A DNA stretch of 44,735 nucleotides from a phage. The DNA lies in the sequence record PZ166175.1. One strand, 5' to 3'. Of this stretch, positions 1,885 through 44,520 are shown one piece after another; positions within the stretch are counted from its first letter, which is position 1, and each line of letters begins with the position of its first letter. The notes under the pieces were generated by a model. That model saw only the letters and a program-made list of their open reading frames with translations. It had not been told where the DNA came from and did not search any database. The position numbers and the translations under genes are program-made.

Positions 1885-1905
1885 GGTCAGATTATACCAT
1901 ATTGC
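1885..1905 (-). promoter_or_regulatory. extended -10 promoter candidate (TGGTATAAT) for the terminase operon
   Basis: minus-strand sense reads TGCAATATGGTATAATCTGACC about 30 nt upstream of the TerS start, just downstream of a terminator hairpin. Confidence 0.4.
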
Positions 1906-1910
1906 AGACG

Positions 1911-1933
1911 AAAAAAAGCCCTCAAGCGAGGGC
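1911..1933 (-). terminator. rho-independent terminator (minus strand)
   Basis: GCCCTC-aagc-GAGGGC hairpin followed by a T7 run in minus-strand sense. Confidence 0.55.
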
Positions 1934-1979
1934 TAAAAAACAACGAGAGAAACCAAACTTAACGAGGGTATAACACTTT

Positions 1980-3214: not shown

Positions 3215-3276
3215 TTGTTGGTAATGTCATTATATGCCATTCGTGTCAGATGCTTTTAGCTATTCGTGCTATTTTT
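3215..3276 (-). promoter_or_regulatory. early promoter cassette (palindrome + 22 bp + TATAAT)
   Basis: minus sense: AAATAGCACGAATAGCTAAA, 22-nt spacer, TATAAT. Confidence 0.5.
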
Positions 3277-3392
3277 ATCTTCTCTCTCCTTCCATAGATT
3301 CATCAGTTAAAAGTACTGCATAGCCTCTTAGCCAGTCTTAGCCTCATCCATTATTCTTTTAGCCCACTGGCTTGGTAATTCGTAGTTGTCCA

Positions 3393-3554
3393 TTAGTAAA
3401 TTATTACCTCGTCTTTTGAGAGGTAGATATCTTCGCCATTCTTGTTCTTTACGATGTAGCAACTACCATCATCACTCATCTCTGCGAAGAACACATCGCC
3501 GCGCTGAATTAGCGCCACATAATCACTCTCGCCAACATAAACAACCTTAATCAT
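3393..3554 (-). CDS. hypothetical small protein (53 aa)
   Basis: hand translation MIKVVYVGESDY...; RBS AAGGTG; stop overlaps next ATG. Confidence 0.35.
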   Translation of the reverse strand: MIKVVYVGESDYVALIQRGDVFFAEMSDDGSCYIVKNKNGEDIYLSKDEVIIY

Positions 3555-3572
3555 AGAATCACCTTACTTAAA

Positions 3573-3692
3573 TTATAGTTCGTTAGAATGCGTTTTAGCT
3601 TCATCTACTGATGCCGAAATTATGTAAATAATGGCGAAGCCTATAGACCAAAGTAACCACGGTAGAGCCTCAGCAAAAAGCTCGTCTATCAT
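3573..3692 (-). CDS. hypothetical small membrane peptide (39 aa)
   Basis: hand translation MIDELFAEALPWLLWSIGFAIIYIIS...; one hydrophobic helix; weak RBS. Confidence 0.3.
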   Translation of the reverse strand: MIDELFAEALPWLLWSIGFAIIYIISASVDEAKTHSNEL

Positions 3693-3717
3693 TAACCCTG
3701 TGTGCGTATCGCCACCC

Positions 3718-3915
3718 TCAGATTTTGTTAAGTTGCTCAAGAATTTCGTATGCTAGCTCTCGGGCCTGCTCTTCGGTTAAGTGAATGGTGTGAACCTGAG
3801 GTTCATCTCTCATCCCACACGCCTGGGCAATAATGAATGTTGCGTAGCCATCGAAGTGGTTGGCCTGGAGCTTTGGTTCTGATTGTTGAAATCTCATTTC
3901 TTCTTCCTCGTTCAT
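3718..3915 (-). CDS. hypothetical protein (65 aa)
   Basis: ORF track; promoter cassette directly upstream. Confidence 0.5.
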   Translation of the reverse strand: MNEEEEMRFQQSEPKLQANHFDGYATFIIAQACGMRDEPQVHTIHLTEEQARELAYEILEQLNKI

Positions 3916-3980
3916 TTCGATGGGGTAACTATAGCAAGTTACCCCAATACTGTTTTAGCAATTAGTGCTATTTAGCATTC
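3905..3980 (-). promoter_or_regulatory. early promoter cassette
   Basis: minus sense: AAATAGCACTAATTGCTAAA, 22 nt, TATAGT, TACCCCATCGAAATG; box lies in a GGGGTAACT/AGTTACCCC inverted repeat. Confidence 0.5.
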
Positions 3981-4111
3981 TTTGACAACTTCACACCACT
4001 TAATAGTTCCCCCAAGAACCCTCTGCTGATCAAATGCTTCTTTAAAATCCTCATAAACCCGAACATGCTTCACGCTGTTAAATTTACCAGTGTTGTACGT
4101 ATGGATGTAAA

Positions 4112-4336
4112 TCATTTCTTTGTCACCTCATCCCAGTTAGTCAGGTATGCCGCATTAACGCTAAGCGCCTCGTATTTGCGTGATGACTCGAAGTCACTGA
4201 CGTCGAACTGCTGATTGTTGATCTGCTTAACTACCTCTTTTGCAACCGCGATATGCTCTGATGGCGTATGGTAGCTGAATTGAACAAAGCTCTTCAGGAT
4301 TACTGCGTCTTTCTCTGACAGGTTAATTGTAATCAT
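4112..4336 (-). CDS. hypothetical protein
   Basis: ORF track 4112..4375; start moved to the ATG with AAGGAAAA RBS (MITINLSEK...). Confidence 0.45.
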   Translation of the reverse strand: MITINLSEKDAVILKSFVQFSYHTPSEHIAVAKEVVKQINNQQFDVSDFESSRKYEALSVNAAYLTNWDEVTKK

Positions 4337-4346
4337 ATTGTTTTCC

Positions 4347-4451
4347 TTAGTTGTTGAAATACGCGTAAAACTCAAAATAACTCATGTATGATAAGAATCC
4401 AAAAATCAAAATAACCGTCAATACAACTAAAGCTTCAAATGACTTTGGCAT
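4347..4451 (-). CDS. hypothetical small membrane peptide (34 aa)
   Basis: hand translation MPKSFEALVVLTVILIFGFLSYMSYFEFYAYFNN; RBS GAGAGGAAG; cassette upstream. Confidence 0.4.
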   Translation of the reverse strand: MPKSFEALVVLTVILIFGFLSYMSYFEFYAYFNN

Positions 4452-4454
4452 TTT

Positions 4455-4528
4455 TTCTTCCTCTCGCTTGGTGTGGGCTAACTATAACAAAACCCGCCGG
4501 ACCGGGTTTAGCAATTCGCGCTATTACC
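4455..4528 (-). promoter_or_regulatory. early promoter cassette with terminator-like hairpin in the spacer
   Basis: minus sense: AATAGCGCGAATTGCTAAA, 22 nt containing a CCCGG..CCGGG hairpin, TATAGT. Confidence 0.45.
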
Positions 4529-4780
4529 ACCACTAATTGATTTAGACGATTCATGAATCATCTTCTGCCCGTAAAGCTCCTTAGATTTCTGTAATGAATC
4601 AATCGAGTCATTGAGGTCGGTAAGGTAACCCTTATGGCCTCGTAGCCCAAGGCACAATAGCTTCTTGATTGCGTGCTGAGTTGCCGGGTCTGCCACGTGG
4701 AATGCATCTAGAACGCGATATACATCCACCGTAGTTACTGTTCCATCCAGGCTAATAATTTTACGTTCGTACTTGCTCAT
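4508..4780 (-). CDS. hypothetical protein (90 aa)
   Basis: ORF track; ATGA start/stop overlap with the upstream small gene. Confidence 0.5.
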   Translation of the reverse strand: MSKYERKIISLDGTVTTVDVYRVLDAFHVADPATQHAIKKLLCLGLRGHKGYLTDLNDSIDSLQKSKELYGQKMIHESSKSISGGNSANC

Positions 4781-4860
4781 ATCTCAATCCTCGTTATTGT
4801 GCCGCCATGCGTATTAAGCATGAGTTTTGCGTATTTTTCGTCTACATAGTGCAGGAGCAT
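4777..4860 (-). CDS. hypothetical small protein (27 aa)
   Basis: hand translation MLLHYVDEKYAKLMLNTHGGTITRIEI; RBS AGGGGTG; ATGA overlap with downstream gene. Confidence 0.3.
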   Translation of the reverse strand: MLLHYVDEKYAKLMLNTHGGTITRIEI

Positions 4861-4972
4861 ATCAGCACCCCTGATGCTGAACTTATGTTCGTATATGGTC
4901 AATAAAATTCCTTTCGTGTGGTTGATATGGGGATTATACCAGTCAGGATGAATCCCCTTTTAACGAAAGGTT

Positions 4973-5077
4973 CTATTTGATAAACACCAGAAAAATAATC
5001 ACCAGGAGCAGGGTCGCCAATGATAATCCAAGCATCAACAGTTGCATCAACAGTTGCATCACATCAGATGACTTCAT
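4973..5077 (-). CDS. hypothetical small membrane peptide (34 aa)
   Basis: hand translation MKSSDVMQLLMQLLMLGLSLATLLLVIIFLVFIK; ATGA overlap with upstream gene; contains a 12-bp tandem duplication. Confidence 0.35.
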   Translation of the reverse strand: MKSSDVMQLLMQLLMLGLSLATLLLVIIFLVFIK

Positions 5078-5283
5078 ATCGCCTCCGCCTCGTACGCCGC
5101 CAGGATTAATGCCGCCGCCAGTTTGCGGGCTTGATCAGGGCTGTATCGCATAACCGTCTGGCCGTCTCCATTGTCGTAAGGATCGAAATCCAGATACACA
5201 ACCGCTCCTTGATCGGCGCTACCTATACTTACCTCAGCCCGATCAAAGCACTGATCTTCTACTAGAACAGCTTCCATAATCAT
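5074..5283 (-). CDS. hypothetical protein
   Basis: ORF track 5074..5331; start moved to MIMEAV... after RBS AAAGAGGAAA because the cassette box lies inside the longer ORF. Confidence 0.45.
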   Translation of the reverse strand: MIMEAVLVEDQCFDRAEVSIGSADQGAVVYLDFDPYDNGDGQTVMRYSPDQARKLAAALILAAYEAEAI

Positions 5284-5284
5284 T

Positions 5285-5356
5285 TCCTCTTTGTTTTCGA
5301 TGGGGTAATCATAGCTGACTACCCGATCCATTGTTTAGCAATTCGTGCTATTTACC
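5285..5356 (-). promoter_or_regulatory. early promoter cassette
   Basis: minus sense: AAATAGCACGAATTGCTAAA, 22 nt, TATGAT, TACCCCATCGAAAAC. Confidence 0.5.
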
Positions 5357-5441
5357 ACTCAGGAGTGATTTAGCTTTCCGGTAGAACTCAATGGCCGCTT
5401 CCACCTCTTCCTCGCTGTACCGCAAGTGGTATGGTAGTCTA

Positions 5442-5990
5442 CTACTTTGTTTTCTTAATCATTTCCTGATAAGCGTTAATCATTGTAACGGCGCCCTTAA
5501 GCTCTTCACCTTCCAAGCCCGCAACGCTTGGTGACAGCTTGAGTAGTCTAGACTTAAACTTTTCAATGATGGCCGCCTCTTTCTCTGCTTCCTGCTTCTT
5601 CTTCTCACGATTGCCGGTCCAGTGAGCGCCGTCCTCAATATAGATTACCAGGTATTTATCAGCACCATCGCCATCGAAATTACCCGGCCTGGTTTGCTCG
5701 CCTTCATCGTCAATCCAGATGAACTTGTAGCGCGCTCGCTTGTCGGCGTCTCGTAGTTCATTCATTCGCGACACGGTATTGTAGATGTACGAGTTCTTTA
5801 GTTCAGGCATCGCCCTGTCTGCCAGGTTTAGTATCTCGTCAGTCTCTTCGTCATACTCCATTTCGGGATATGGCTTGCCGCGAACAAGTTTGAATATCTG
5901 GCTTACCGGAACTTTGAACTCGCCGTTCTCAGACGCCATTGCGTTACGCACCATCTCACGGATAACTTCGCCAAGTGTTACTTTCTGCAT
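5442..5990 (-). CDS. hypothetical protein (182 aa), first gene of the leftward early operon
   Basis: ORF track; RBS GAAACGAGG. Confidence 0.55.
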   Translation of the reverse strand: MQKVTLGEVIREMVRNAMASENGEFKVPVSQIFKLVRGKPYPEMEYDEETDEILNLADRAMPELKNSYIYNTVSRMNELRDADKRARYKFIWIDDEGEQTRPGNFDGDGADKYLVIYIEDGAHWTGNREKKKQEAEKEAAIIEKFKSRLLKLSPSVAGLEGEELKGAVTMINAYQEMIKKTK

Positions 5991-6287
5991 GTTGATACCT
6001 CGTTTCGTTTACTTCGTTTCAGTGATTGCCATCTTGCCACTTGTTTACGTGTCGGTCAACGTATTTTTATGTCTATTCCATCGCGTATACGTTTTTTCGG
6101 CCTTCAAGGTAGCGTCAGCACTGGTTGTAAACGCGCCGTATCCCCTGTATACCGTTTTTGAGGGTACTTTCCTATATATGTGCCTTTTTATTCCTACAAT
6201 GTCATCCCTTTCCTACAAGTGTCAGAATATCTGCGCGGAACATATCAATTATCTCACCAATGATCGGTATACACAGTATACATATAT

Positions 6288-6308
6288 ATAATAATAATAA
6301 TAATAATA
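6288..6308. repeat. (ATA)7 microsatellite inside a block shared with 24125..24187
   Basis: ataataataataataataata read directly; paralogous block has (ATA)5. Confidence 0.8.
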
Positions 6309-6519
6309 AAGTAAAATGTTGATATATATAGATATTATATTGTATATCGTGTGTATATCTCGCGTAAAAACGTAGGTTAGTGTTCGCTAACTTTTGTGAC
6401 GACACTGAGTATACATGGGTTACGCGTATGCGAAAAATGGCCCGGCAAGAATAAAAATCAACTTGTATGGTAGTCCTTCAATCCTTCATTCACTCACCCA
6501 CCACTTCATTTCACTTTTC

Positions 6520-6605
6520 GCAACAATCAAAAACATCATTGCATCTGAAGCAATATTGCTATATGTGCAATAATCACGTGAATCATTGCAATATCTGCAA
6601 CAATA
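6520..6605. repeat. iteron-like array, five GCAAYAAT copies plus GCAATATTGC and CACGTG palindromes
   Basis: gcaacaatc, gcaatattg, gcaataatc, gcaatatct, gcaacaata within about 85 bp of non-coding DNA. Confidence 0.5.
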
Positions 6606-6616
6606 CATAAATCTTA

Positions 6617-6691
6617 CGAATAGCACTTTTTGCTAAAGACATTAGGGTCTGGTGGGGCTATAGTTAACTCACCAACAGCGAGGGTGTAGAT
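6617..6691 (+). promoter_or_regulatory. early promoter cassette (plus orientation)
   Basis: AATAGCACTTTTTGCTAAAG, 23 nt, TATAGT, then RBS and ATG at 6692. Confidence 0.5.
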
Positions 6692-6889
6692 ATGAAAGTA
6701 AAGGTTATTGAGCTTGATTTCTGTGGTGATATTTATGATGACGAGTATGAGTACTATGGCATCAATCAAGGAGGTGTGCATGAAGTGGTAACTACTTATC
6801 CGGACTTTGAGGCAATTGTAGTGGTTAACAAGTATGGCCGTAATGTTATGCTCTACAATAGAGAGGTTGAAATCTATGAAGAAAAATAA
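6692..6889 (+). CDS. hypothetical protein (65 aa)
   Basis: ORF track; cassette upstream. Confidence 0.5.
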   Translation: MKVKVIELDFCGDIYDDEYEYYGINQGGVHEVVTTYPDFEAIVVVNKYGRNVMLYNREVEIYEEK

Positions 6890-7055
6890 AGATGGATTAC
6901 GTCACGAGTGCGCACTGATTGGGCTTAACGAAGATTACACAGACCTTGTGGTGCGCGGAAAGTTGGACATAGATTTGGCTAAGCAATTCCAGTCAGAGGA
7001 TGAATTCCTGTGCTGTGATGGACTTGGCTGCGTAGAATGTTTGCCATTTATTTGA
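6876..7055 (+). CDS. hypothetical protein (59 aa, MKKNKDG...)
   Basis: ORF track 6834..7055; start moved to the ATG after GAGAGG. Confidence 0.4.
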   Translation: MKKNKDGLRHECALIGLNEDYTDLVVRGKLDIDLAKQFQSEDEFLCCDGLGCVECLPFI

Positions 7056-7065
7056 GGATTGAGAT

Positions 7066-7305
7066 GTGAAAATTCGCTGCACTAACTGTATCACCAGCAC
7101 CGAAAATAAAGTATTAACTCCATTCGTAAAAGGATCTGTATACGACGCTGAGCCGCTAATGATTAGCGGCAAGGTAATACAGAACGAGTGGTTGATTAAT
7201 GGCGCTGAGCGACCGCACAAGAACGATTCTGGCTGGATTGCCATTGCAGGATGGAATGTTGTGATGTTTATCCCTGGAATTGCAACTTTTGACGAGGTGA
7301 AATGA
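7066..7305 (+). CDS. hypothetical protein (79 aa), GTG start
   Basis: ORF track; Cys-x2-Cys at N-terminus. Confidence 0.4.
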   Translation: MKIRCTNCITSTENKVLTPFVKGSVYDAEPLMISGKVIQNEWLINGAERPHKNDSGWIAIAGWNVVMFIPGIATFDEVK

Positions 7306-7466
7306 TGCTATTACCATCTGAGATAAATTATTTCGATCTTGAGGTTATAAGCGCCTATAGCGGAAAGGGCTGGCCTTGCGGAGACTGGTTCCGCGAAGAC
7401 CTGCTTGAGAGCCATGAAATTATGATCAAGGCGATAGAGAAGGCACGAAATAGCACTAATTGCTAA
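7302..7466 (+). CDS. hypothetical small protein (54 aa)
   Basis: hand translation MMLLPSEINYFDLEV...; ATGA overlap with upstream gene; 3' end runs into the next cassette palindrome. Confidence 0.35.
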   Translation: MMLLPSEINYFDLEVISAYSGKGWPCGDWFREDLLESHEIMIKAIEKARNSTNC

Positions 7467-8278: not shown

Positions 8279-8352
8279 ATAGCACAAATTGTTAATGAAT
8301 TATAAGCGGTCGTTGTTATAATGGCCGCTCAGAAACAACACGGAGAGAAGTA
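8277..8352 (+). promoter_or_regulatory. early promoter cassette with consensus TATAAT
   Basis: AAATAGCACAAATTGTTAA, 22 nt, TGTTATAAT (extended -10), then RBS GGAGAG and ATG at 8353. Confidence 0.5.
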
Positions 8353-9936
8353 ATGTTTGATTTCAACGAAGATAAACTATCTGTTGAACAGGTTATGGCA
8401 ATTGCTGCCGCAGAAAACCTTCCACCTTTGCGCGTCGCCATTAATGCTAATGGATATCGCCAGTCTCAATCATTCTGGAAGGCTCCGGTCGAGATTGATG
8501 CAGCTAATGACAAGTATCCAGTAATCTCACTCGGCAATGATGTTGATGTTGTTGGTAAATTGTCAGCTAACATTGCTCGGAGCGTGCAATTCCCCGAGTC
8601 TTCAGCTTACATGCACTTCCTGGGGTGTATTTCCGCTGCGATGCTAGGCCGCTTTACCGTTGAGTATCACGGAACTCAGCAACCGACCTCGCTTTATGTT
8701 GTGACGAGCCAGCCTCCATCTACAGGTAAATCAGCAATAAACTCACTTTCTATTGCTCCAATGATTGCTGAGACTGAGAGACTGAATGAAGTGCGAAAGC
8801 GCGAGCGCAAAAAGATTATGGCTAAACTATCTGCGTTATCCAAAGAGATGAAGCAGGAAAAATCCCCGTCAGAGATGGCTTCTCTTTTCGAGGAGAAAGA
8901 GGAGTTGGAGGAAAAACTCGAGAAACTATGCGATATCGTTTTCCCGGTTTCAGATACCACACCGGAAGGTCTTGCGCGAATAAACAACCGTCAGGGCAAC
9001 TTTGCAGTAATCTCGGATGAGGCAACGAGTGTAAACTCACTACTTGGCATGACCTATGGTGACGGATCAAAGAAAACGAACAGTGAGCTTGTGCTTAAAG
9101 CATGGGATGCGGGTAACGTATCTATCGCGCGTGCGAACGCAGAAAGCAACATGAGTTTCGTTGCTATGGGTTGTATCTCTGTAATTGCGCAGGATGAGAC
9201 TATTAACGCCATCATGAATGCTGGTGCGCGTGGTATCGGTGTGTCGGAACGTTTTCTTCTTGTACGTGAAAAATCACTCCTGGGAGAACGTGTATTCGTT
9301 GATGAAAATGGTGAATCAACTTACGAGCCAATTGACGGTGGGCTGAAGTCTGACTACTTCCGATTGGTTCACGAAATAATGAATGAGCAAGATGTAAAGT
9401 TGACGGTAAGTAACTCAGCGATGAAATACCTCAACCTAGCGCGTCAGGAAATGGAACCTCACCTTGCTGACGGCGGGAAGTATTCACACACAATGTTGCG
9501 AGGCGCGTTGGGTAAGTTCGATAAGCAGGCAATCAGGATTGCGGCTGTTCTTCACACTGTGCGTAACTGGTTCAACCCAAATGGCGGTAGCCCGCAGAAG
9601 TCCAGGGAGATTGATCTTGACACAATGCAAGAAGCTGTGATTATGTTCCAGGAGTTGAGCAAAACTTATCTGTCATCTGCTAACGCCGCTGGTCACGCTG
9701 GCGACAATGCCGAGATGAATAAGCTGATTGATATTCTGATTAAGCAAGGCAAGAACGGTAAAGGCGTAGTTGGTATTCGTTCATTATATGAAGCGGCTCG
9801 TAAAGTTAAGCCGTTCGAGGCTCAGGCTGGAGTAATGACGAAGATTAAAGATCACCTACTGCCAATGCTTGACGAGAAAAACTACACGTGCCTGATTGGT
9901 GATAAAGTTTACATTAATCCGCGATTGCTGGGGTAA
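8353..9936 (+). CDS. hypothetical 527-aa protein with P-loop-like and DE-box-like motifs
   Basis: ORF track; motifs PPSTGKS and VISDEAT read from the translation; own cassette promoter; no family confidently recognised. Confidence 0.6.
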   Translation: MFDFNEDKLSVEQVMAIAAAENLPPLRVAINANGYRQSQSFWKAPVEIDAANDKYPVISLGNDVDVVGKLSANIARSVQFPESSAYMHFLGCISAAMLGRFTVEYHGTQQPTSLYVVTSQPPSTGKSAINSLSIAPMIAETERLNEVRKRERKKIMAKLSALSKEMKQEKSPSEMASLFEEKEELEEKLEKLCDIVFPVSDTTPEGLARINNRQGNFAVISDEATSVNSLLGMTYGDGSKKTNSELVLKAWDAGNVSIARANAESNMSFVAMGCISVIAQDETINAIMNAGARGIGVSERFLLVREKSLLGERVFVDENGESTYEPIDGGLKSDYFRLVHEIMNEQDVKLTVSNSAMKYLNLARQEMEPHLADGGKYSHTMLRGALGKFDKQAIRIAAVLHTVRNWFNPNGGSPQKSREIDLDTMQEAVIMFQELSKTYLSSANAAGHAGDNAEMNKLIDILIKQGKNGKGVVGIRSLYEAARKVKPFEAQAGVMTKIKDHLLPMLDEKNYTCLIGDKVYINPRLLG

Positions 9937-14689: not shown

Positions 14690-14757
14690 TGTTTCGTTTC
14701 GATGGAGTAACTATATCGCATCCATGCGAAATCCCTTTAGCAATTCGTGCTATTTTG
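14690..14757 (-). promoter_or_regulatory. early promoter cassette
   Basis: minus sense: AAATAGCACGAATTGCTAAAG, 22 nt, TATAGT, TACTCCATCGAAAC. Confidence 0.5.
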
Positions 14758-15170: not shown

Positions 15171-17165
15171 TCAATCCTCCATAGTAAAAGATTTGTTTGC
15201 AATGATATCCTGACCTTTCTGGTTTTTTCTATGGGTCACCCGCAAAGGCTCACGAAATTGACTTGCATTAGTCATAATCATTCTTGCATTACGCAGCCTA
15301 CCTATTCTAAACGCCTCTGCTTTGCTCTGTATGTGAGTCTGACAAAATGCTTTCCACTTAACAGAGCAAACACGATGGTCACTTTCTGGAAAAAATGTTT
15401 CATATGCAATGAACTTCTGACCACTGTGAGCCATGATTTCATAACGGGCGACTATGCCAGTTTGGTTTTTAGTTAATCCAATGCTGAATCCGTAAACCCT
15501 CAACCAATCACCTTGTCGATACATCTTTCCAGACAATTTTGCGTTAGGGTCAATAAGCATTTCTCCGCAGCAGCGGCAGTTTTTAGCGGCGATATCATTC
15601 TTTTCACCGCAACCTTTCTTAATAGTAACTTTTGTCTGCGGGTCCTCTATATCTTCACATAAGCGAAATGTAAAAAAATGCTCACAACGCTTCCCGTCAA
15701 TTACGTTATTGCAACGACGAGCAAAAGGAGAGTTCTCGTAACTACAGGCCGGACATATTCTTGGCTTATCTCCGCCTTTGCGTGAAGACTTAAATTTCTG
15801 GTCCTGCACTTCCTCTATGATTGGGTCAAAGTACAATTCCGCCATGTCATCAAGAGTACCAGCGAAGTCTAGCACCACGTGATCATCCTTAACCATTCCC
15901 ATTTCCTTATGCTTATTCTTAAGAATTCGCATACCTCGCCCCAAAAGCTGAATCAGTAACGTGATGCTACCAACCTTGCGAAGAATTATTGACGTGTCCC
16001 ACGGCGGGACATTGACGCCAGTTGTGAGGCAACCAATCTGAAAGATGAATTTATACTTACCCTCAGATGCATCAGCTAGAATCTCACGACGCTTTTTCTC
16101 ACCTGTAGAGTCAGTTACTATTGCCCAGGTTACACCCTCAGGAAGCGCCTCGGCTGCCTCCTCGCAATGCCGCTTGCCTGAACAAGTTACTAGTGCTGCG
16201 TTACGAGTTTCCATAAACTTGGCTGCGAACTGCATAATCTTTTGCGTCATGGACTGGTTTTGATGAATTTTTTCCTGCATCGCATCCATTTCTTTCTTAC
16301 TAAAGTCTTTCACGCCATCACTACCGTCTGGAACAAACTCGCTAAGGTCGTAACCCAAATCACCAACCTCTCCGTAAACAGTTGGAACCACGAATCCCAA
16401 ATCAACAAGGTAATTTGTTGGAACCTGAATCACAGTTTTTCGCCAGAACCCACGAATGTTTGGATTACTAACGACGATATGATCATTGTTTCGATAAGGG
16501 CTACCAGTGAGGCCGAATATACGAAGCTCCCGCCCGTATTTTTCACGGCAGCGACGCTTCATCTCAGTGATTATTAGCGTGTACTGCGCACGACCAGTAC
16601 CAAGCAATCCAGTATTAACGCCATCCTTAAAAACCATCTCGCCTTTCTTTGTGCTCATTTGTTCAAATGTTTCTTCATTCTCTTCTGCTTCCACGATATC
16701 CATGTGATCGACCATGTGACACTCATCTATAGCTATAACGGCAGGAACATAGTCACCAAGCCCCTTAAATAAGCCATTAGCGGCCGTGCCCTCACTGGCA
16801 ACTATAGTTGGGTAGTAAACTGATTTAACGTTAAGGCCAGCGCAATATACGCTATTACGGATACCAAAATTACGAAGCTCTTCTGAGTTCTGGCTGATTA
16901 TCTCTGACTGGCGAGAAAGAACCATGTAAGGCAAGCCCAATTGCTCCATGCGCTTACCAATCATGGCGAGAATGATTGTCTTACCAGCCGATACGGAAAG
17001 ATCTGCGATAAATGGGGCCTCGTACTTGCCAATAGCCTTTCCGATTGCATCAAATGTAACGCACTGGAACTCGTAAGGGGTTATCTCGCCAAACTGGTAA
17101 TCTTTCTGAATCTGTTTAATTCTTTCTTTATCAAAGTTGGCAACCAGCTTATCGATAGGCAACAT
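15171..17165 (-). CDS. SF2 (DEAD/DExH-type) helicase with C-terminal Cys-rich zinc-ribbon-like region
   Basis: Walker A SVSAGKT, DExH box AIDECHM, Cys cluster CPACSY...RRCNN...CRCCGE. Confidence 0.7.
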   Translation of the reverse strand: MLPIDKLVANFDKERIKQIQKDYQFGEITPYEFQCVTFDAIGKAIGKYEAPFIADLSVSAGKTIILAMIGKRMEQLGLPYMVLSRQSEIISQNSEELRNFGIRNSVYCAGLNVKSVYYPTIVASEGTAANGLFKGLGDYVPAVIAIDECHMVDHMDIVEAEENEETFEQMSTKKGEMVFKDGVNTGLLGTGRAQYTLIITEMKRRCREKYGRELRIFGLTGSPYRNNDHIVVSNPNIRGFWRKTVIQVPTNYLVDLGFVVPTVYGEVGDLGYDLSEFVPDGSDGVKDFSKKEMDAMQEKIHQNQSMTQKIMQFAAKFMETRNAALVTCSGKRHCEEAAEALPEGVTWAIVTDSTGEKKRREILADASEGKYKFIFQIGCLTTGVNVPPWDTSIILRKVGSITLLIQLLGRGMRILKNKHKEMGMVKDDHVVLDFAGTLDDMAELYFDPIIEEVQDQKFKSSRKGGDKPRICPACSYENSPFARRCNNVIDGKRCEHFFTFRLCEDIEDPQTKVTIKKGCGEKNDIAAKNCRCCGEMLIDPNAKLSGKMYRQGDWLRVYGFSIGLTKNQTGIVARYEIMAHSGQKFIAYETFFPESDHRVCSVKWKAFCQTHIQSKAEAFRIGRLRNARMIMTNASQFREPLRVTHRKNQKGQDIIANKSFTMED

Positions 17166-17187
17166 ATCTAAATTCCTGTAAAAATTG

Positions 17188-17218
17188 TCTTGTAGCGTTT
17201 AATTGAGTACAATAATAC
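17188..17218 (+). promoter_or_regulatory. sigma70-like promoter candidate (TTGTCT, 17 bp, TACAAT)
   Basis: read directly upstream of the 17267 gene in the divergent helicase/regulator intergenic region. Confidence 0.35.
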
Positions 17219-17266
17219 CATCAAATAAGGATGACTTTTAACAAAAAATGCTATTGAGGTAATGAA

Positions 17267-17749
17267 ATGAATGCAGTAGACAAGCGAACCATTAACGGCA
17301 ATAACGGAACCATCCGCACCGAAGACAAAAAGAAACGTAAACGACCTTCAGGCTACTACGTTTTAAAAGATGAAGTAAGGGCCGGGCTACGCGCGCGGCT
17401 AGAGATTGTTCTTGATTTCTTCGGCACAAAGGCGAATATCGCAAAGCAGTTAAAGGTAACACCACAGGCCGTAGAAGAATGGTTTAAGCGCGGCATGATT
17501 TCTGCGCGTGGCGCCCAGCTATCGCACAACTACTATAAGCGAAATGGAGAAGGCTTTCGCGCTACATTCTGCCGCCCAGACCTGCAATTCGACGGTAACG
17601 GCAAGCCGCTAACCCTGCGGTGCAAAAAACGTCATATGCTGCGTGTTGTTACTGAGGCCGAATTAGCCACCAAGCCAGAGTGTCGATCATGGCGCAAGAT
17701 TAAGGCCGCTAACGAGGCAGCACGAAAAGCTAAAGAGCAAGGGAAATAG
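17267..17749 (+). CDS. putative DNA-binding protein (HTH)
   Basis: ORF track; segment TKANIAKQLKVTPQAVEEWFKRG resembles an HTH; basic N-terminus. Confidence 0.45.
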   Translation: MNAVDKRTINGNNGTIRTEDKKKRKRPSGYYVLKDEVRAGLRARLEIVLDFFGTKANIAKQLKVTPQAVEEWFKRGMISARGAQLSHNYYKRNGEGFRATFCRPDLQFDGNGKPLTLRCKKRHMLRVVTEAELATKPECRSWRKIKAANEAARKAKEQGK

Positions 17750-17802
17750 CACGAATTGATAAACAGTGGCGCTATACATTGTGTATAGTGCCTTTATTGT
17801 TT
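17745..17802 (+). promoter_or_regulatory. early promoter cassette
   Basis: AAATAGCACGAATTGATAAAC, 22 nt, TATAGT, then RBS GGGGGTAA and ATG at 17803. Confidence 0.5.
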
Positions 17803-18741
17803 ATGGGGGTAACTATGAGTCACCATGATAAGAACGAAGTGATAGCAAAAATGAAGGGAATGTGGAGTGAATTCTACTTGTCTCATTTAGGATGGAACAG
17901 AGAAAATCTTAGCAAGAAGCATGGACCATGCCCGAATTGCGGAGGTCGTGATAGGTTTCGATTCACTGATGAGCTAGGACAAGAAAAAGGAAACGGAGCA
18001 GCAATATGCAACCAGTGCGGAAATGATTCCGGTGTTGGCTGGGTTATGAAATGCTCGGGAATGAGTTATAGCGAAACAATAGATACGCTTGGTGATTGGC
18101 TGAATCTAGTTCCGGTGGAGGTTATATCAAAAGCAAACAAAAGAGCATCAAGAACTTCACCGTATAAGATGGGTGCTCAAATGGATCATGAAAAATGCTG
18201 GGAGATAATGAGGAGAACTGAGGTTGTTGAGTCAAGCCCGCTGACACAGTATGAAGGTATCTACAGCGAGTTTGGTTTTGATGTTGGCAGGACAAAATCA
18301 GGAGAACTAATACACGCACTGCCGTGCTTTATGGCTTATAGTGACGGTATATCAGAAGAAATGTGCAATGTAATGTTTATCAATGAAGAGGGGGATGTTA
18401 GTTATGCTGCAAAAGATTACACTCGCCAGTCTGTTTCTGTTATTGGTTCCTTTAAGGATGATGAGTACGCTTATCTGGTCGATAATTTCATTGACGGCTA
18501 TCGCGTTCATCTTGCTACTGGAAACCGCTGCGTGCTTGTTTGCTACTCCAGTTACAACATGGAAATGGTTGCTTACGCGCTCAAAGATTTCAAGTTAAGA
18601 GTCGCTTGCACTCGCCACGATTTTGATTTACTTGCCGTTGCTGACGATCGCAATCTTGATGTTGTAATGCCAAATGACGATAACCACTTCAAATCAGGAA
18701 TAAGAAAGCGAATATACAAAGCAAGCGAATTACTAGACTAA
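17803..18741 (+). CDS. DNA primase-like protein with N-terminal zinc-binding domain
   Basis: ORF track 17779..18741, start moved to ATG after RBS; motif HGPCPNCGGRDRFRF...CNQCG typical of primase zinc-binding domains. Confidence 0.6.
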   Translation: MGVTMSHHDKNEVIAKMKGMWSEFYLSHLGWNRENLSKKHGPCPNCGGRDRFRFTDELGQEKGNGAAICNQCGNDSGVGWVMKCSGMSYSETIDTLGDWLNLVPVEVISKANKRASRTSPYKMGAQMDHEKCWEIMRRTEVVESSPLTQYEGIYSEFGFDVGRTKSGELIHALPCFMAYSDGISEEMCNVMFINEEGDVSYAAKDYTRQSVSVIGSFKDDEYAYLVDNFIDGYRVHLATGNRCVLVCYSSYNMEMVAYALKDFKLRVACTRHDFDLLAVADDRNLDVVMPNDDNHFKSGIRKRIYKASELLD

Positions 18742-18759
18742 CCTCCTCGGGATGTTTTT

Positions 18760-18825
18760 ATGCCTGAAAGATGATACAATCCAATTTAGCAATTCTTGCT
18801 GTTTTACAAATGGAGACTTTACACA
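18760..18825 (+). promoter_or_regulatory. tail fiber promoter candidate (TGATACAAT) with palindrome TTTAGCAATTCTTGCTGTTTT downstream of the -10
   Basis: extended -10-like TGATACAAT then the cassette-type palindrome between -10 and start codon. Confidence 0.4.
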
Positions 18826-21231
18826 ATGGCAATTTATGACTTAGGAACAGCATCACTAGCTGCAAATGGCGAGGTGACTGGAGTCGGTACGACATGGAAA
18901 GCACCACTCACTCTAATTCGAGTTGGTGCAACTATTGTATTTAAAACTGAGCCAGTTAAGATTTATACTATCTCTGAAATTATCAGCGACACTCAGATTA
19001 ATGTTTATAACCCTAATTCTGAAACTGTTCCTGCTGGGACTGGTTACGCGATTCTTGCTCACGATGGAATTACAGTTCAGGGGTTGGCTCAGGATGTTGC
19101 AGAAACCCTTCGTTACTATCAGTCGCGTGAAACAGAAGTTGCAGATGCTGTTGATGCATTTAACAATTTTGACTCTGCTGATTTTAAATCAAAGGTAACG
19201 CAGGTAAACACGCAGTACGGTGATGTTGTTACGATTGCAGAACAGGTAAACACGAAGTACGGTGATATTGTTACGATTGCAGAACAGGTTTCAAGTGATG
19301 CATCATCATCACAAATTAACGCCACCAATGCATCATCTTCCGCCGATAGAGCACAAGCAGCGGCAAACTCCGTGTCTGGATCATTAACTTTAAACTTCTC
19401 AGATGGAGGAACGGTAGAGTCTAAAAATCAGCAGGTTTTATACATCAATGGAAGTGATGTTAAGTCTTATGTCTGGACTGGGTCATTCCCGAAGACGATT
19501 CCAGCTGGCTCAACCCCAGATAGCGCAGGTGGTGTTGGTGCTTACTCATGGGTCAAGATTTATGACTCAAACCTGTTTGATTACGATGGTTTAAGTTCAA
19601 TCGGTAAGGTTAAATCAGTTTCAGAGTTATCTTGTTTGTCAGGTGAGATTGGTATTACTACGATTGAGCTAGAGTCTTATGTGGCTGGATTCAACCTAGG
19701 CGGTGGTACTCTTATCGCGTCAGATGCATCACTTCAGGTTAATAATGTAACTGTTTTTTCAGGGGACGGCGTCACATGGAGCCGTAAACTTAACGGTAGA
19801 AGAGCAACAGTATATGATGCTGGTTACACTGGTGATGGTGATATAGCTGCGGCAATAAACTCAGTAAACATGGCTGGCCTTGACTGCGTTGTTCCTGTAG
19901 ATGGCCTTGTGCAATCACAGATAAACATCGACGTATCAAGAGGTTCATTGATAGGCGAGAACAAGTGCAATATTAAAGAGTCCCCTGGTGCTGTTGGTGA
20001 ATATTTCGTAAACATATTCAACTCAAATACTGATTATGTTGATAGAGACTCGATATCATCAACATCATTGATATCTGGGATTTCATTTACTGGCCTTGGA
20101 GCACGCAAGTTCTGTGTAGGTGGATCAACATCAGGTGAGACTGGCGAATTAAGAATCGAGAACTGCGGAATCATATCAACTGGTGGAATTGAGTTCTTAG
20201 ACAACTCATATAGGATTCTTTTTGATAAGTGCGCAATAAGCAGGAGTTTTAATGAGACAATAACTTTTAGGTCGAGAGCTAACTCTGGTGAAGTTATGAA
20301 GTTTAATCACTGCTGGATTGTAGATAACGGAGGCCCAATCACCTTTGAGAATGGTCAGTTTATTTTTGATTCATGCTCGTTACCGGCAGGTAAAAAGAGT
20401 GGCTATTTTGACCCCACAGTAAGTCTGCACGATAACGCGACGGTAGTTTTCTCAAATGGAAATATAGAGTATCAGCCAGGTCAGAACTTCGTATCATTCC
20501 TGGTCACGGGAAGTTCGAGATTAAGCATAAAAGACACCACCATTCTTGTTCCGGATGGTTTTACGTCTGTTCCAATCGTAAGTAATGATGATGGCGTTGT
20601 AATCTTGAATAATTGTTCGCTTCCTCTATACGGAAGTACCACAATTGCTTCTGGTTTCCAAGCAAGGCAAGTTGTCGGCGGGTCTAGTAAAAAGGTTATC
20701 GCGAGAGGGTGCTTTCCGAGGGCTGGATTCCCTGTTAGTGATTGGAGCAAGGGATCAATTGTTAGCCCTTACATTAACAGCTTAAGCAATGGCAGCGGAC
20801 AGTTTCAGAATACTTCCAACTGGTCACTGTCGCAAACTTCTTCTGGATCGGTTACTGCCTCTATTGTCTCGCAGGTGCCCACAGGTATAACTGCTCAGTT
20901 TGATAGGTCATTCCTTTTGAATGTACCTGACTTAAACTCATCAGCGAACTTTACCACTAATGCTTATGATTGCGAGCCGGGTAGATACTTCCAGTTCGGA
21001 TTTTGGGCCATGAACACAACAAAAACATTAGCAAGTATTAGATTTTTAGATATTTCTGGTAATGCTGTTGAGGAATCTGTAGGTTACTACATACCGAAAG
21101 GTGGTATCTTCTCTTTTTACGCTCTTATATCAACGGTTCCCCAGGGTGCATATAGAGCCGAGATAAACTTTAACGTAGGACCATCCACTGGCTACCTTAT
21201 GTTACACAATGTTATTTATGGATTGATTTAA
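18826..21231 (+). CDS. tail fiber protein (putative)
   Basis: ORF track 18796..21231, start moved to MAIYDLGTASLA...; long Ser/Thr/Gly/Asn-rich protein; internal tandem duplication. Confidence 0.6.
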   Translation: MAIYDLGTASLAANGEVTGVGTTWKAPLTLIRVGATIVFKTEPVKIYTISEIISDTQINVYNPNSETVPAGTGYAILAHDGITVQGLAQDVAETLRYYQSRETEVADAVDAFNNFDSADFKSKVTQVNTQYGDVVTIAEQVNTKYGDIVTIAEQVSSDASSSQINATNASSSADRAQAAANSVSGSLTLNFSDGGTVESKNQQVLYINGSDVKSYVWTGSFPKTIPAGSTPDSAGGVGAYSWVKIYDSNLFDYDGLSSIGKVKSVSELSCLSGEIGITTIELESYVAGFNLGGGTLIASDASLQVNNVTVFSGDGVTWSRKLNGRRATVYDAGYTGDGDIAAAINSVNMAGLDCVVPVDGLVQSQINIDVSRGSLIGENKCNIKESPGAVGEYFVNIFNSNTDYVDRDSISSTSLISGISFTGLGARKFCVGGSTSGETGELRIENCGIISTGGIEFLDNSYRILFDKCAISRSFNETITFRSRANSGEVMKFNHCWIVDNGGPITFENGQFIFDSCSLPAGKKSGYFDPTVSLHDNATVVFSNGNIEYQPGQNFVSFLVTGSSRLSIKDTTILVPDGFTSVPIVSNDDGVVILNNCSLPLYGSTTIASGFQARQVVGGSSKKVIARGCFPRAGFPVSDWSKGSIVSPYINSLSNGSGQFQNTSNWSLSQTSSGSVTASIVSQVPTGITAQFDRSFLLNVPDLNSSANFTTNAYDCEPGRYFQFGFWAMNTTKTLASIRFLDISGNAVEESVGYYIPKGGIFSFYALISTVPQGAYRAEINFNVGPSTGYLMLHNVIYGLI
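19201..19284 (+). repeat. 42-bp tandem duplication (x2) inside the tail fiber gene
   Basis: caggtaaacacgcagtacggtgatgttgttacgattgcagaa repeated with 2 mismatches; encodes QVNTQYGDVVTIAE / QVNTKYGDIVTIAE. Confidence 0.85.
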
Positions 21232-24598: not shown

Positions 24599-25533
24599 TG
24601 GCTCAAGGTATATACATAGATCTTAATGATGGAAGGAATCCAATGACAATTACCGCAGGGATGCGAGCCTTGAATTTCGCTGGCAACTTCAACGTTTCTA
24701 GTGGTGGGTTTAGTAAGACTTTCTCAATTCAGGGTAATGAAGGAGCCTCAAGGTTCCTTATCCCTAACAATGGAGCTTACTCATTCGAACTTGATAGAGG
24801 TGTTGAGATTTACTACATAAATGGATTCTCATCAACAGCATCAAGCGGAACGATATCGATTGGCTATGAGAATGGATATCCCGACCGTATAACTCAATTT
24901 TCTGGTACTGTTGTTGAGGTACTAAGAGCATCGACTGGACAAGGTATTTATGTTGCGAATAGTACTGATTTTACCTCGATAACCACCACTGACAGGTTGT
25001 TGGTGTGCAAGTTTGCCCAGAGGATATCTTTCACCAACACATACACACTTCCAATTTATGGGATACCATTTGGAAAGTGGAGCAACCCAGGCGTTTCAGT
25101 TGAATACAACGGTAGCAACCAACTGATATGTACAAACATAAATACTGAAGATACTGGTGATACACCAGGAAGTGTCACTATGGATTTGATTATCTTCCAG
25201 ATGGTCGCTCCAACCCCTGGTCCGGGACTTAACATATTTAATTCAAATGGTGTTTGTACGCTATCGACCGTAACTAGGCCATTGGTTGTTTCTGGATTCA
25301 TAAACCTATCAGGTAGCAATCAGTACATTGGCGAATCTTACTTCCCAATACTCAGATGTGGATTTAACACAAGAGCAATACGAGCATATAAGGAGTTGAG
25401 AAACAAAGGAATCGTAATGAGCAATGGATATGTTAGATCTGGTACGGGCTCAAGGATTGTCAGATACGAGATAGGAAATAGGCCTGACGTAACAATATCA
25501 ACGCCACTTCCTTACCTTCCTGATATGTATTAA
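24598..25533 (+). CDS. hypothetical beta-rich protein (311 aa)
   Basis: ORF track 24589..25533; TAATG overlap with lipoprotein gene; Ser/Thr/Gly/Asn-rich; no signal peptide. Confidence 0.5.
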   Translation: MAQGIYIDLNDGRNPMTITAGMRALNFAGNFNVSSGGFSKTFSIQGNEGASRFLIPNNGAYSFELDRGVEIYYINGFSSTASSGTISIGYENGYPDRITQFSGTVVEVLRASTGQGIYVANSTDFTSITTTDRLLVCKFAQRISFTNTYTLPIYGIPFGKWSNPGVSVEYNGSNQLICTNINTEDTGDTPGSVTMDLIIFQMVAPTPGPGLNIFNSNGVCTLSTVTRPLVVSGFINLSGSNQYIGESYFPILRCGFNTRAIRAYKELRNKGIVMSNGYVRSGTGSRIVRYEIGNRPDVTISTPLPYLPDMY

Positions 25534-28500: not shown

Positions 28501-28972
28501 ACTCGCAAGTAGTTCCGTTCAGATCGCCATTACTTTCTTGCTTAACCAGCCTGGGCCAATATAGCTTTACACGAATCGCTGATAGCTGAGTATTGTTAAC
28601 CGCAATGATGTAAGGGGTATCGTTCGTGATTTCTCTGGAAGCCTGAATCTCTGAGTTAGCACCATCAAGACCAGCGATATAGTCCTGATACTGCGTGCCA
28701 GCACGGAACTCAGCGCGAACACCCTCGTAGTTGTAGCTACCATCCTGGTTTTGCACTGGAACATCAGCAAGGTATAAATCCTTCATTGAGAAGTTTGAAT
28801 CCACCTCTCCGTCAGCAACAGCAAGCAACACCTTAACCTTGTTAAGTGAAATAAGGTTATCTTCCTGTTCAACTGGTTGATGCTGCTTCTGGCTACCGCC
28901 TTTAGCACCATAAATCTTAATCTCTTCAGCCATATCACAAAGCCTCATGTTTGTTTTGATCATTTGTGCCAT
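25562..28972 (-). CDS. central tail fiber / host specificity protein (lambda gpJ-like)
   Basis: 1136-aa ORF at the distal end of the tail module after gpI/K/L/M-like genes. Confidence 0.7.
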   Translation of the reverse strand: MAQMIKTNMRLCDMAEEIKIYGAKGGSQKQHQPVEQEDNLISLNKVKVLLAVADGEVDSNFSMKDLYLADVPVQNQDGSYNYEGVRAEFRAGTQYQDYIAGLDGANSEIQASREITNDTPYIIAVNNTQLSAIRVKLYWPRLVKQESNGDLNGTTCEYAIDLSVNGGAYQEYTRGVANGKTTTGYDRSIRVNLPAEFDSALVRIRKITPDSTSSTLVNGMQITTYQEVIDAKFRYPLTALVYVEFGSDLFPNGIPTISIKKRWKLIQVPTNYDPETRTYSGTWNGLFKMAWSNNPAWVLYDLVTNRRYGLDQRELGVEIDKWGLYEAAQFCDQMVPDGKGGMEPRYLCDMVVQNKVEAYTLIRDICSIFRGLTFYDGEKIGIVVDKPRNPSYIFTNDNVVNGLFSRTFASDKSLYTTANVQFDDVENNYQQDVEPVFELEATRRFGFNPVDLTAIGCTRRSEANRRGRWLLKTNLRSETISFTTGLEGMIPMIGEVIAVNDAAWSSNYQLNLSGRIESVQGLQVFTPFKVDAAPGDRILLNKPDGSPEARTIASISEDGRTINLNTAFSFVAQPDTVFAIDKDNLALQQYVVTGIQKADSDGSDSFQYTITAVEYDPNKYDEIDYGVNIVDRPTSIVEPDRLSPPENLTVSSYSKVVQGLSVETMVIGWDKAPYAKTYNVQWRKENGNWINVPRTASTEVDIEGIYAGIYDVRVRSVSDTENVSAWSDIVTVSLTGKIGRPSAPTVITASTDEVFGIRVKWGFPDGSGDTAYTELQQVPDNGDGTYNPDNASLLTLLPYPAYEYWHTPIQPGKVIWYRARLIDRIGNTSDWSSFARGMSTDDENIINDYIKVDIEGSEGFKYLEQNAIQKNQDIQNQAESILENALANDTDVRRMTKENGKRKAEYVQAVNLIADETQARVEALTALKAQIDDEVVASITEVQTALATETEARATADTALSARLGDNEAALNQKLDAFSNATSTGVQYGISLGLKYNGQTYSSGMSMELVGTGGNVRSQFIFDANRFAISNGIGSGSGQWQLPFVVENGNVIIQSAVIGDGSISNAKIGNFIQSSNYVAGSTGWRIDKSGNAEIRGKLYANSGEFAFNGINNTVQINGNGITVNLPGGGRVVVGTF

Positions 28973-28980
28973 TCTACACT

Positions 28981-29006
28981 AAATAAAAAACCCGCACTAG
29001 GCGGGT
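28981..29006 (-). terminator. terminator-like hairpin between gpI-like and gpJ-like genes
   Basis: CCCGC-actag-GCGGG followed by T-run in minus sense. Confidence 0.45.
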
Positions 29007-29013
29007 ATGATGT

Positions 29014-44444: not shown

Positions 44445-44520
44445 TTTTTTCTCCTCTCGTTTGTGTAAGTTAACTATAAGCCATCCGTGTCTTTGGTGTT
44501 TAGCAATTCGTGCTATTTAA
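44445..44520 (-). promoter_or_regulatory. early promoter cassette overlapping the TerL stop codon
   Basis: minus sense: AAATAGCACGAATTGCTAAAC, 22 nt, TATAGT, TAACTTACACAAACGAGAGGAG, ATG. Confidence 0.5.

Follow-up and report, generated by a model that had tools for sequence, protein, structure and literature searches.

We found that the tail-fibre gene of a T1-like phage (sequence record PZ166175.1, 44,735 nt; the whole stretch is called the window below) carries, over the predicted start site of its own promoter, a reversed copy of a repeat that stands forward, at a nearly fixed distance from the -10, in 17 other promoter units of the window. By sequence and geometry this repeat is very probably the marbox, an asymmetric site of 19-20 bp to which the Escherichia coli stress regulators MarA, SoxS and Rob, monomers of the AraC family, bind. 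The best explanation, to which we give a probability of about one half and which rests on comparison of sequences, is that host MarA/SoxS/Rob activate the forward units (the cassettes) and occlude the tail-fibre promoter. The window belongs to a siphophage of the Drexlerviridae, closest to ESCO41 (Nouzillyvirus, 93%) and then to Veterinaerplatzvirus/Msk-type phages (about 88%). Three of the elements were known before, each by itself: the repeat, promoters of the extended -10 type, and regulation through the marbox. What appears to be new relative to the literature searched is the recognition that the Drexlerviridae repeat is a consensus marbox with the geometry of class II, and that a conserved reversed marbox lies over the tail-fibre start site; the search gave no paper in which T1-like phages are tied to the marbox or to MarA/SoxS/Rob.

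In phage TLS, re-annotated in 2024, a 21-nt direct repeat, aaATAGCACnnnTTGnTAAAA, is described at 18 intergenic places; the paper notes similar repeats for T1, Rtp and Rogue1, and offers stoperators, enhancer sites or UP elements as possible roles (PMC11447400), and its passages on the repeats mention neither a marbox nor a fixed spacing to a -10. None of these repeats is annotated in the T1 GenBank record. We observed that the phage repeat equals the E. coli marbox consensus GCACTAATTGCTAAA. Against the consensus stated as gcactaattgctaaa in a MarA chromatin immunoprecipitation sequencing (ChIP-seq) study (PMC5684230), the window copies at 7453 (plus strand) and 3954 (minus strand) matched at 15/15 positions, and the commonest window copy, GCACGAATTGCTAAA, at 14/15. 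The degenerate mar/sox/rob box quoted in PMC3709825, AYnGCACnnWnnRYYAAAY, was matched by the repeat at 18-19 of its 19 positions, and with at most one mismatch it occurred 16 times in the window (0.92 expected).

A position weight matrix was then built solely from 29 host MarA ChIP-seq sites (Table 1 of PMC5684230), with expectations from first-order Markov resampling. It found 16 window sites of at least 16 bits (0.20 expected) and nine of at least 18 bits (0.01 expected). Sites of at least 16 bits numbered 18 in T1, 14 in Jk06 and 14 in Klebsiella phage KP36; at a threshold of 14 bits or more, lambda had none and four Drexlerviridae genomes had 18-25. Most of the phage sites outscored the host median of about 14 bits. 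Several phage 15-mers were also identical to host sites bound by MarA in vivo and in vitro, namely yneO in the window, and pheP and ypeC in T1/TLS. MarA is therefore expected to bind the phage sites whenever present, and so are SoxS, Rob and RamA, as the motifs of the four are nearly indistinguishable.

The 17 cassettes lie on both strands of the window, each with its marbox forward and 17-19 bp upstream of a good -10. Counted from the 20-bp marbox, the spacer was 18 bp in 14 of them, 19 bp in two and 17 bp in one, and every -10 matched TATAAT at no fewer than five of six positions, with A-11 and T-7 present. Along the direction of transcription the order is aAAT-AGCAC-NNN-TTGCT-AAA, 20 nt, a TATAGT-like -10, the leader TAcCCCATCGAAAC, AGGAG and ATG, so that a ribosome-binding site and a start codon follow each cassette on the same strand. 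Class II promoters of MarA/SoxS/Rob are defined by a forward site overlapping the -35 (PMC6900184, PMC12052159); such a site has its centre at -36 to -55. All 17 cassettes have this geometry, and their spacing is that of E. coli micF, in which the 20-bp marbox ACAGCACTGAATGTCAAAAC is followed by 18 bp, the -10 TAGAAT and, 8 nt on, the annotated +1. The cassettes thus share with micF, lpxC, lpxL and rfaY a forward consensus marbox, overlap with the -35, a spacing of 18 bp and the lack of a -35 hexamer. They differ from these host promoters in lying on a virulent genome, at 14-25 copies per approximately 45-50 kb, and in being much nearer to the consensus than most host sites. We also pooled 70 cassettes from four genomes, a selection that itself requires a marbox reading toward its -10. 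Their spacer was 18 bp in 55, 19 bp in nine and 17 bp in six, and 55 of the 70 had G at -14.

Other readings of the repeat were tried and rejected. TTGCTA taken as a -35 would leave a spacer of 22 nt, which is too long. The T4 MotA box, (a/t)3TGCTTtA, is centred at -30, 11-13 bp from the -10, and acts with MotA/AsiA; the phage element TTGCTAAA ends 20 nt from the cassette -10 with its centre near -37, and the MotA/AsiA family was absent from the 25 Pfam families listed for the window (of 47). Sites for IHF, Fis and CRP, an UP element, the MotA box and the TTGC repeats of lambda CII, compared by eye through their consensus sequences, likewise misfitted in sequence or spacing.

The marboxes of the cassettes (19-mers) lie on the minus strand at 3254 (3254-3272), 3953, 4506, 4958, 5333, 11730, 14735, 17236, 22639, 30791, 35979 and 44498, and on the plus strand at 6620, 7450, 8279, 17746 and 24284. 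The repeat heads most operons of the phage, and these include small left-end, replication and structural ones alike. The stretch after the cassette -10, TATAGT-TAcCCCATCGAAAC, is itself conserved over the predicted start and first transcribed bases (for example 3900-3930, 5290-5320 and 14690-14720, minus strand), and TAcCCCATCGAAAC could be a discriminator or leader element.

The tail-fibre copy stands in a different arrangement. Upstream of the tail-fibre gene the sequence runs CCTCCTCGGGATGTTTTTATGCCTGAAAGA-TGATACAAT-CCAAT-TTAGCAATTCTTGCTGTTTT-ACAAAT-GGAG-ACTTTACACA-ATG. The element TGATACAAT (TGaTACAAT; 18772-18780, plus strand) is an exact TGnTAnAAT: TG at -15/-14 and one further base adjoin the TATAAT-like hexamer TACAAT at 18775-18780, in which A-11 and T-7 are both present, and no usable -35 is found. 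Only two such stand-alone intergenic TGnTAnAAT sites occur in the window, this one and one ahead of TerS. Transcription probably starts at A18788 (18787-18789, plus strand), 8 nt past the hexamer; this is the usual -10-to-start distance, and the +1 of micF likewise lies 8 nt after TAGAAT. The Shine-Dalgarno sequence GGAG (18812-18815, plus strand) is 10 nt ahead of the ATG at 18826, which opens the gene for the lateral tail fibre or tailspike (18826-21231, plus strand; 801 aa; Pfam Tail_spike_N, E 2.6e-15). The list of open reading frames (ORFs) also offers TTG 18796 as a start; annotated homologues begin MAIYDLG at the ATG 18826, and the N-terminus MAIYDLGTAS is common to annotated tail-fibre proteins, T1 gp26 included.

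Between this -10 and the ATG lies the motif that the original prediction had placed there, and the sequence bears this position out (-10 at 18772-18780, core at 18788-18800). On the plus strand it reads TTTAGCAATTCTTGCTGTTTT (18785-18805), with the core AGCAA-TTC-TTGCT (AGCAATTCTTGCT) at 18788-18800. On the minus strand it is a reversed marbox, ACAGCAAGAATTGCTAAAT (18784-18802), which matches AYnGCACnnWnnRYYAAAY at 18/19 positions and scores 17.2 bits, above the median of the host sites. Read as the direct repeat, the minus strand gives aaACAGCAAgaaTTGcTAAAt, which agrees with the intergenic consensus; relatives carry the canonical GCACGAATTGCTAA(A/G) on that strand. An exact AGCAANNNTTGCT occurs once in the window, and with at most one mismatch it occurs 13 times (3.07 expected), a number reached in 0/100 shuffles. 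That the motif is a copy of the family repeat, and a conserved one, is almost certain. Its sequence and its place between genes also make it the same element as the repeats in the TLS passages; those are co-directional with transcription and lie about 76 nt upstream of the start codon, whereas the tail-fibre copy is reversed and lies 24-42 nt from the start codon, with its near end 24 nt short of the ATG.

The motif lies 3-7 nt 3' of the tail-fibre -10, on the opposite side from the marboxes of the cassettes. With the start taken as A18788, the 20-bp site (18783-18802) covers about -5 to +15, inside the DNA held by the polymerase (about -55 to +20). Being reversed, 3' of the -10 and without a -10 at 17-19 bp on its own strand, the copy falls outside class II. 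Among the consensus-grade marboxes of the window it alone has, on the strand on which it reads, no -10 at cassette spacing, and the tail-fibre copy of T1 lacks one likewise. These observations bear on whether the element serves a leftward class II promoter, which would yield an antisense RNA to the primase 3' end or compete for polymerase with the rightward promoter. The marbox does read forward on the minus strand, and leftward and rightward -10s overlap or abut at the helicase/regulator pair described below and upstream of T1 gene 40. At the tail-fibre site, however, 17-19 bp from the marbox there is no acceptable -10 (GGCATA in the window, TACCTG/GATACC in T1, GGAATA in ESCO41), the best minus-strand candidate in the window being CATAAA at 20, which lacks T-7, and no leftward gene is there to be driven; we regard such a promoter as improbable. 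Class I-type activation about 60 bp downstream was rejected as well: no -10/-35 was seen on reading the sequence there, and the transcript would miss the start codon.

We compared the region with relatives drawn from GenBank phage records (a related-locus search seeded on the primase gave six loci). The alignment held 18 sequences, the window and 17 relatives (Veterinaerplatz/Msk types, Braunvirinae, Nouzillyvirus, LF82-19, and the Tunavirinae T1, ADB-2 and S2_02); four Rogunavirinae and KP36 were examined besides. The order terminator, TGnTAnAAT, 5-6 nt, TTAGCAATT(C/A)GTGCTAT, Shine-Dalgarno sequence and ATG was found in 17/17 sampled relatives outside the Rogunavirinae. TGnTAnAAT was invariant in 18/18 aligned sequences and was also kept in the four Rogunavirinae, in agreement with the view of the original prediction that this is a real tail-fibre promoter. 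Among the 18 sequences the TG, T-12, A-11, A-9, A-8, T-7, the marbox core and the gap of 5-6 nt between -10 and marbox were invariant or nearly so, whereas the spacer sequences and the distance from marbox to Shine-Dalgarno sequence varied. As the same order recurs in 17/17 relatives with an invariant core and diverged flanking spacers, the arrangement goes beyond chance. The conservation supports the view that a sigma-70 promoter with an extended -10, working without an activator, belongs to the tail-fibre gene itself; the promoter is family-wide, and the marbox in operator position is conserved in several lineages and positionally coupled to the -10.

The terminator of the relatives, CCTCCTTCGGGAGG-T7 or compensated stems, folded at -10.5 to -11.8 kcal/mol (z about -3.5 to -3.8), and its stem showed compensatory changes (CCTCC/GGAGG, CCCGC/GCGGG, CCCTC/GAGGG and CCGCC/GGCGG). 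This terminator matters for the suggestion that a protein bound at the marbox acts as a roadblock, halting read-through from the primase gene rather than local initiation. Stoperators were indeed raised for the repeats in the TLS paper (PMC11447400), and in the window a dead terminator leaves read-through to block. In the 17 relatives a roadblock would be redundant with a strong terminator 30 bp upstream, and the conserved coupling is to the -10, which makes this role very unlikely. Monomeric activators are, moreover, generally weak roadblocks. A resemblance to the stoperators of mycobacteriophage L5 lies in the many asymmetric sites spread over a phage genome; the L5 sites serve the repressor of a temperate phage and block elongation, whereas most repeats here stand at a fixed, activating distance from a -10.

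Conservation also bears on whether the copy has no regulatory role at all, being a relic or hitch-hiker such as a recombination linker that borders an exchangeable tail-fibre module. BLAST homology with the T1 group starts at the promoter and repeat (window 18755-18771), as at the edge of a module, and further downstream the part that binds the receptor is mosaic; the repeat is missing here in the Rogunavirinae and KP36, and the window copy is decaying. Still, the core and the 5-6 nt gap are fixed across Tunavirinae, Braunvirinae, Nouzillyvirus and unclassified phages while neighbouring bases change, and a reversed linker would favour inversions over module exchange. We therefore hold a copy without a regulatory role to be unlikely. 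Less likely again is an element that works at the RNA level or as a sigma pause, either as a hairpin in the 5' untranslated region (5'-UTR) or through the sense-strand TGCTATTTT as a -10-like pause or second promoter. The local promoter would transcribe the element, and the sense strand of relatives has TGcTATTTT. The hairpin, rejected as a candidate, folded at -4.1 kcal/mol (z +0.45), no better than shuffles, with 4 bp pairable in relatives; the -10-like reading of TGCTATTTT is unconserved (TAAACA in ESCO41, TATCAA in AugustePiccard), and the window has lost it (TGCTGTTTT). Taken together, a role of this kind is highly improbable.

The form of the repeat speaks to the kind of protein that binds it. 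The repeat contains a partial dyad, TAGCA-N5-TGCTA (5+5 bp). Positions 1, 7, 11, 17 and 18, which are asymmetric and break the dyad, were among the best conserved in the 70 cassettes, so that a monomer that has a pair of helix-turn-helix (HTH) motifs fits and a dimer does not. The original prediction had described a perfect palindrome, AGCAA-N3-TTGCT, in an operator position. The palindrome is present, but it is part of an asymmetric marbox and not a true dyad operator: only 5+5 bp are symmetric, the asymmetric conserved positions and fixed orientation speak against a dimer operator, and its perfection is private to the window, through a G>T change. The operator position itself stands, as a protein bound over the predicted start would exclude polymerase.

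A search for an AraC-type gene in the phage, by tblastn with MarA and SoxS queries, gave only chance matches in the terminase gene (E 0.1-0.7), and a Pfam scan of 75 ORFs showed no AraC-type family among the 25 families listed of 47. The sole annotated regulator (T1 gp23-like, 17267-17749, plus strand) has a single P22 Cro-type HTH. We also considered a binder encoded by the phage, which could be this regulator, binding TAGCA-N5-TGCTA as a dimer, or some early protein that escaped recognition. Such a binder would turn on the cassettes and turn off its own promoter and that of the tail fibre, and the likeness to the marbox would be mimicry or coincidence. The regulator is conserved family-wide and has a plausible activator-independent promoter, TTGTCT-N17-TACAAT; its own leader holds a reversed repeat, as in autoregulation, and the partial dyad would suit its Cro-type HTH. 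This is a rather unlikely explanation, since a dimer leaves the asymmetric positions and fixed orientation unexplained, a 15/15 match to the MarA consensus, combined with the spacing seen in micF, would very rarely arise by chance, and MarA binds sequences identical to phage 15-mers experimentally. In addition, the left-end cassettes (3254-7450), presumably early, would have to await a regulator encoded in mid-genome.

The reversed repeat in the regulator leader (17236-17254, minus strand) is the marbox of the helicase cassette, and is thus a second instance of a reversed marbox ahead of a gene; the helicase/regulator layout is also found in T1, Jk06 and KP36. In this divergent pair (17165-17267) the rightward promoter TTGTCT-N17-TACAAT (17185-17213) and the leftward marbox-dependent one, with TATTAT, have overlapping -10 regions, which suggests that activating one excludes the other. 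This marbox has an evident job, the activation of the divergent helicase promoter.

We propose that host MarA/SoxS/Rob, probably the physiologically relevant binders and activators, work on the two kinds of site as follows. At the cassettes, where a forward marbox stands 18 bp from a near-consensus -10 without a -35, the bound factor would replace the -35 contact and recruit RNA polymerase. The tail-fibre promoter would be active without an activator, and in relatives the terminator would insulate it from the primase gene. A protein on -5 to +15 would occupy DNA needed for the open complex and lower initiation by steric occlusion, so that tail-fibre expression would run opposite to activator occupancy. 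Given binding, net repression is the outcome that we slightly favour, because the site covers DNA that polymerase must hold in its cleft.

There are precedents for both signs. The promoter of pbpG is repressed by MarA/SoxS/Rob via a marbox within the core promoter (PMC12052159), and a screen for MarA/SoxS/Rob-repressed targets used sites centred at -35 to +25. The likeness lies in an activator family acting negatively where its site overlaps the promoter; the host marboxes of the pbpG type lie in the spacer or over the -35, whereas the phage site covers the start of a promoter of the extended -10 type, where repression is predicted. The promoters of purA, hdeA and rob are further ones repressed via a marbox inside the core promoter. 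Lambda cI, a phage-encoded dimer that binds dyad operators and serves lysogeny, activates PRM from -42 (OR2) and represses PR by overlap. It resembles the present system in giving opposite outcomes with one protein by the position of its site, the cassette marbox being centred near -41. It differs in that the present phage is virulent, as T1-like Drexlerviridae are, and that the protein bound is probably a monomer supplied by the host. No repressor or integrase was among the 25 Pfam families listed for the window (of 47).

The original prediction had gone further and suggested that the same factor could activate early genes and repress the tail-fibre gene. MarA/SoxS/Rob are known for both signs, and the motif does lie on the other side of the -10 from that in the cassettes; calling the cassettes early is too simple, as they precede replication and structural operons too and so fall in all temporal classes. 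The scheme fits T1 better than the window, because nowhere in the T1 late region (8.4-29.6 kb) does a good -10 follow a marbox at cassette spacing. Four strong sites occur in that region. Two are reversed (15068 and 18832), and the -10s that the opposite strand offers them at this spacing are only weak; the two forward ones (8362 and 25021) lie at or after the -10 of a late promoter. The late region of KP36 (9-32 kb) has no marbox at all. That of the window, unlike those of T1 and KP36, has cassettes at 44498, 35979 and 30791, a lineage difference in promoter wiring.

Two other late promoters, those of TerS and J, offer parallels to the tail-fibre site in T1, where strong marboxes adjoin or come after their extended -10. 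At TerS, the window (1885-1960, minus strand) has a perfect extended -10, TGGTATAAT (1891-1899), with a terminator ahead of it and no marbox; in T1 (8322-8396) a forward marbox of 19.6 bits, identical to the host pheP MarA site, abuts TGgTAAAAT. The tail-tip J gene has a terminator-insulated promoter (28930-29010, minus strand in the window) with the -10 TAGAAT (TGTATAAT in T1), overlapped in the window by a weak marbox-like sequence of 6.2 bits (28954-28972, minus strand). The homologous J marboxes score 15.3 bits in T1 (25021-25039), where the site lies 13 nt after cTGTATAAT, and 13.8 bits in Jk06 (4745-4763); that of the window is degenerate. The first ATG of the listed J ORF (28972) probably belongs to this promoter/marbox element and is not the true start.

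Several observations weigh against host MarA/SoxS/Rob as activators of the cassettes and repressors of the tail-fibre gene. The marbox of the tail-fibre promoter is dispensable, since four Rogunavirinae keep the terminator and cTGATACAAT and lack the marbox, and KP36 has only TGcTATTAT, also without a marbox. In the window the site has GCAA where 17/17 relatives have GCAC, a C at position 7 that is present in 64/70 cassettes; GCAA is known in a few MarA-bound host sites, for example yfeS/cysM, scored '+++' (PMC5684230). Cells that are not under stress contain little MarA and SoxS, and most Rob is sequestered in standard conditions, so that it is not obvious why a fast lytic phage should rely on them. 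That one factor should repress a structural gene while activating other structural operons is also not self-evident as logic. The classical mutants with resistance to T1 are known from genes for the receptor and for uptake, and are not known from those for MarA/SoxS/Rob. The literature searched held no binding, transcription or start-site data for any T1-like phage. Finally, with its terminator lost, the local promoter may count for less in the window.

This loss is one of several changes private to the window, whose 89-nt region has a best match of 92.4% among 92 database records. Alone among the 18 aligned sequences, the window has a damaged terminator, with a 3-nt deletion, GGAGG>GGATG and a T-tract shortened from seven to five. 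The remnant, CCTCC-TCG-GGATG-T5 (18742-18759, plus strand), was recognised by folding and alignment; it folds at -2.5 kcal/mol (z 0.04) and was missed by the terminator scan. Alone, too, the window has the marbox change G>T, which turns the AGCAATTCGTGCT of relatives into the perfect palindrome and GCAC into GCAA. The marbox mutation lies 40 bp 3' of the lost terminator, and the two changes coincide. All of the changes speak for a rise in tail-fibre transcription, fed by read-through that begins at the primase cassette and by a weaker operator. As the insulating terminator is destroyed, read-through from the primase cassette (17746-17789) likely contributes to tail-fibre transcription here, and the gene is probably less tightly held down than in relatives.

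A further and more speculative extension, which we consider possible and not probable, is that the T1 family has handed promoter recognition to the MarA/SoxS/Rob stress regulon of the host as a titration timer or environmental sensor. On this view most promoters of these phages would be class II promoters with super-consensus marboxes. Hundreds of replicating genomes, each with 14-25 top-affinity sites, would deplete an activator in limited supply; alternatively, the activator pool would shift with bile, oxidative or phenolic stress in the gut. The activated promoters would saturate, and the occluded, terminator-insulated late promoters (tail fibre, and in T1 also J and TerS) would open. To our knowledge T1 has no RNA polymerase or sigma factor of its own, and its early, middle and late ordering has been an open question since the 1970s; recognition of the marbox makes this question directly testable with existing strains and proteins. 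If host MarA/SoxS/Rob do act as proposed, phage yield and tail-fibre dosage would depend on the stress state of the host, with a bearing on fermentation contamination and therapy phages, and the phage sites would compete with the antibiotic-resistance regulon of the host for its activators. The tail-fibre site would then be a clear natural case of one host factor used with both signs by a virulent phage.

Immediately upstream of the tail-fibre promoter, and co-directional with it, lies the DNA primase gene (17815-18741, plus strand; Pfam Zn_Ribbon_Prim), for which the position of the cassette -10 at 17784-17789 suggests the ATG at 17815 as start. Its class II-type cassette (17746-17789, plus strand) consists of a marbox at 17746-17764, N18 and TATAGT at 17784-17789. 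A second strong marbox of 17.0 bits (17720-17734, plus strand) lies 29 bp ahead of the primase marbox, in the 3' end of the regulator gene, and a terminator-like hairpin with a T-tract (17768-17792, plus strand) holds the -10 of the primase cassette (TATAGT) in its 3' arm. Elsewhere in the window, the large terminase ORF exits the left end (1-1350) and apparently resumes at the right end (44516-44735, minus strand), which makes it probable that the window is a whole genome, circularly permuted and cut open within terL. A tRNA-Arg gene (anticodon tct) was found at 2381-2458 on the minus strand, and the same has been reported in other T1-like phages.

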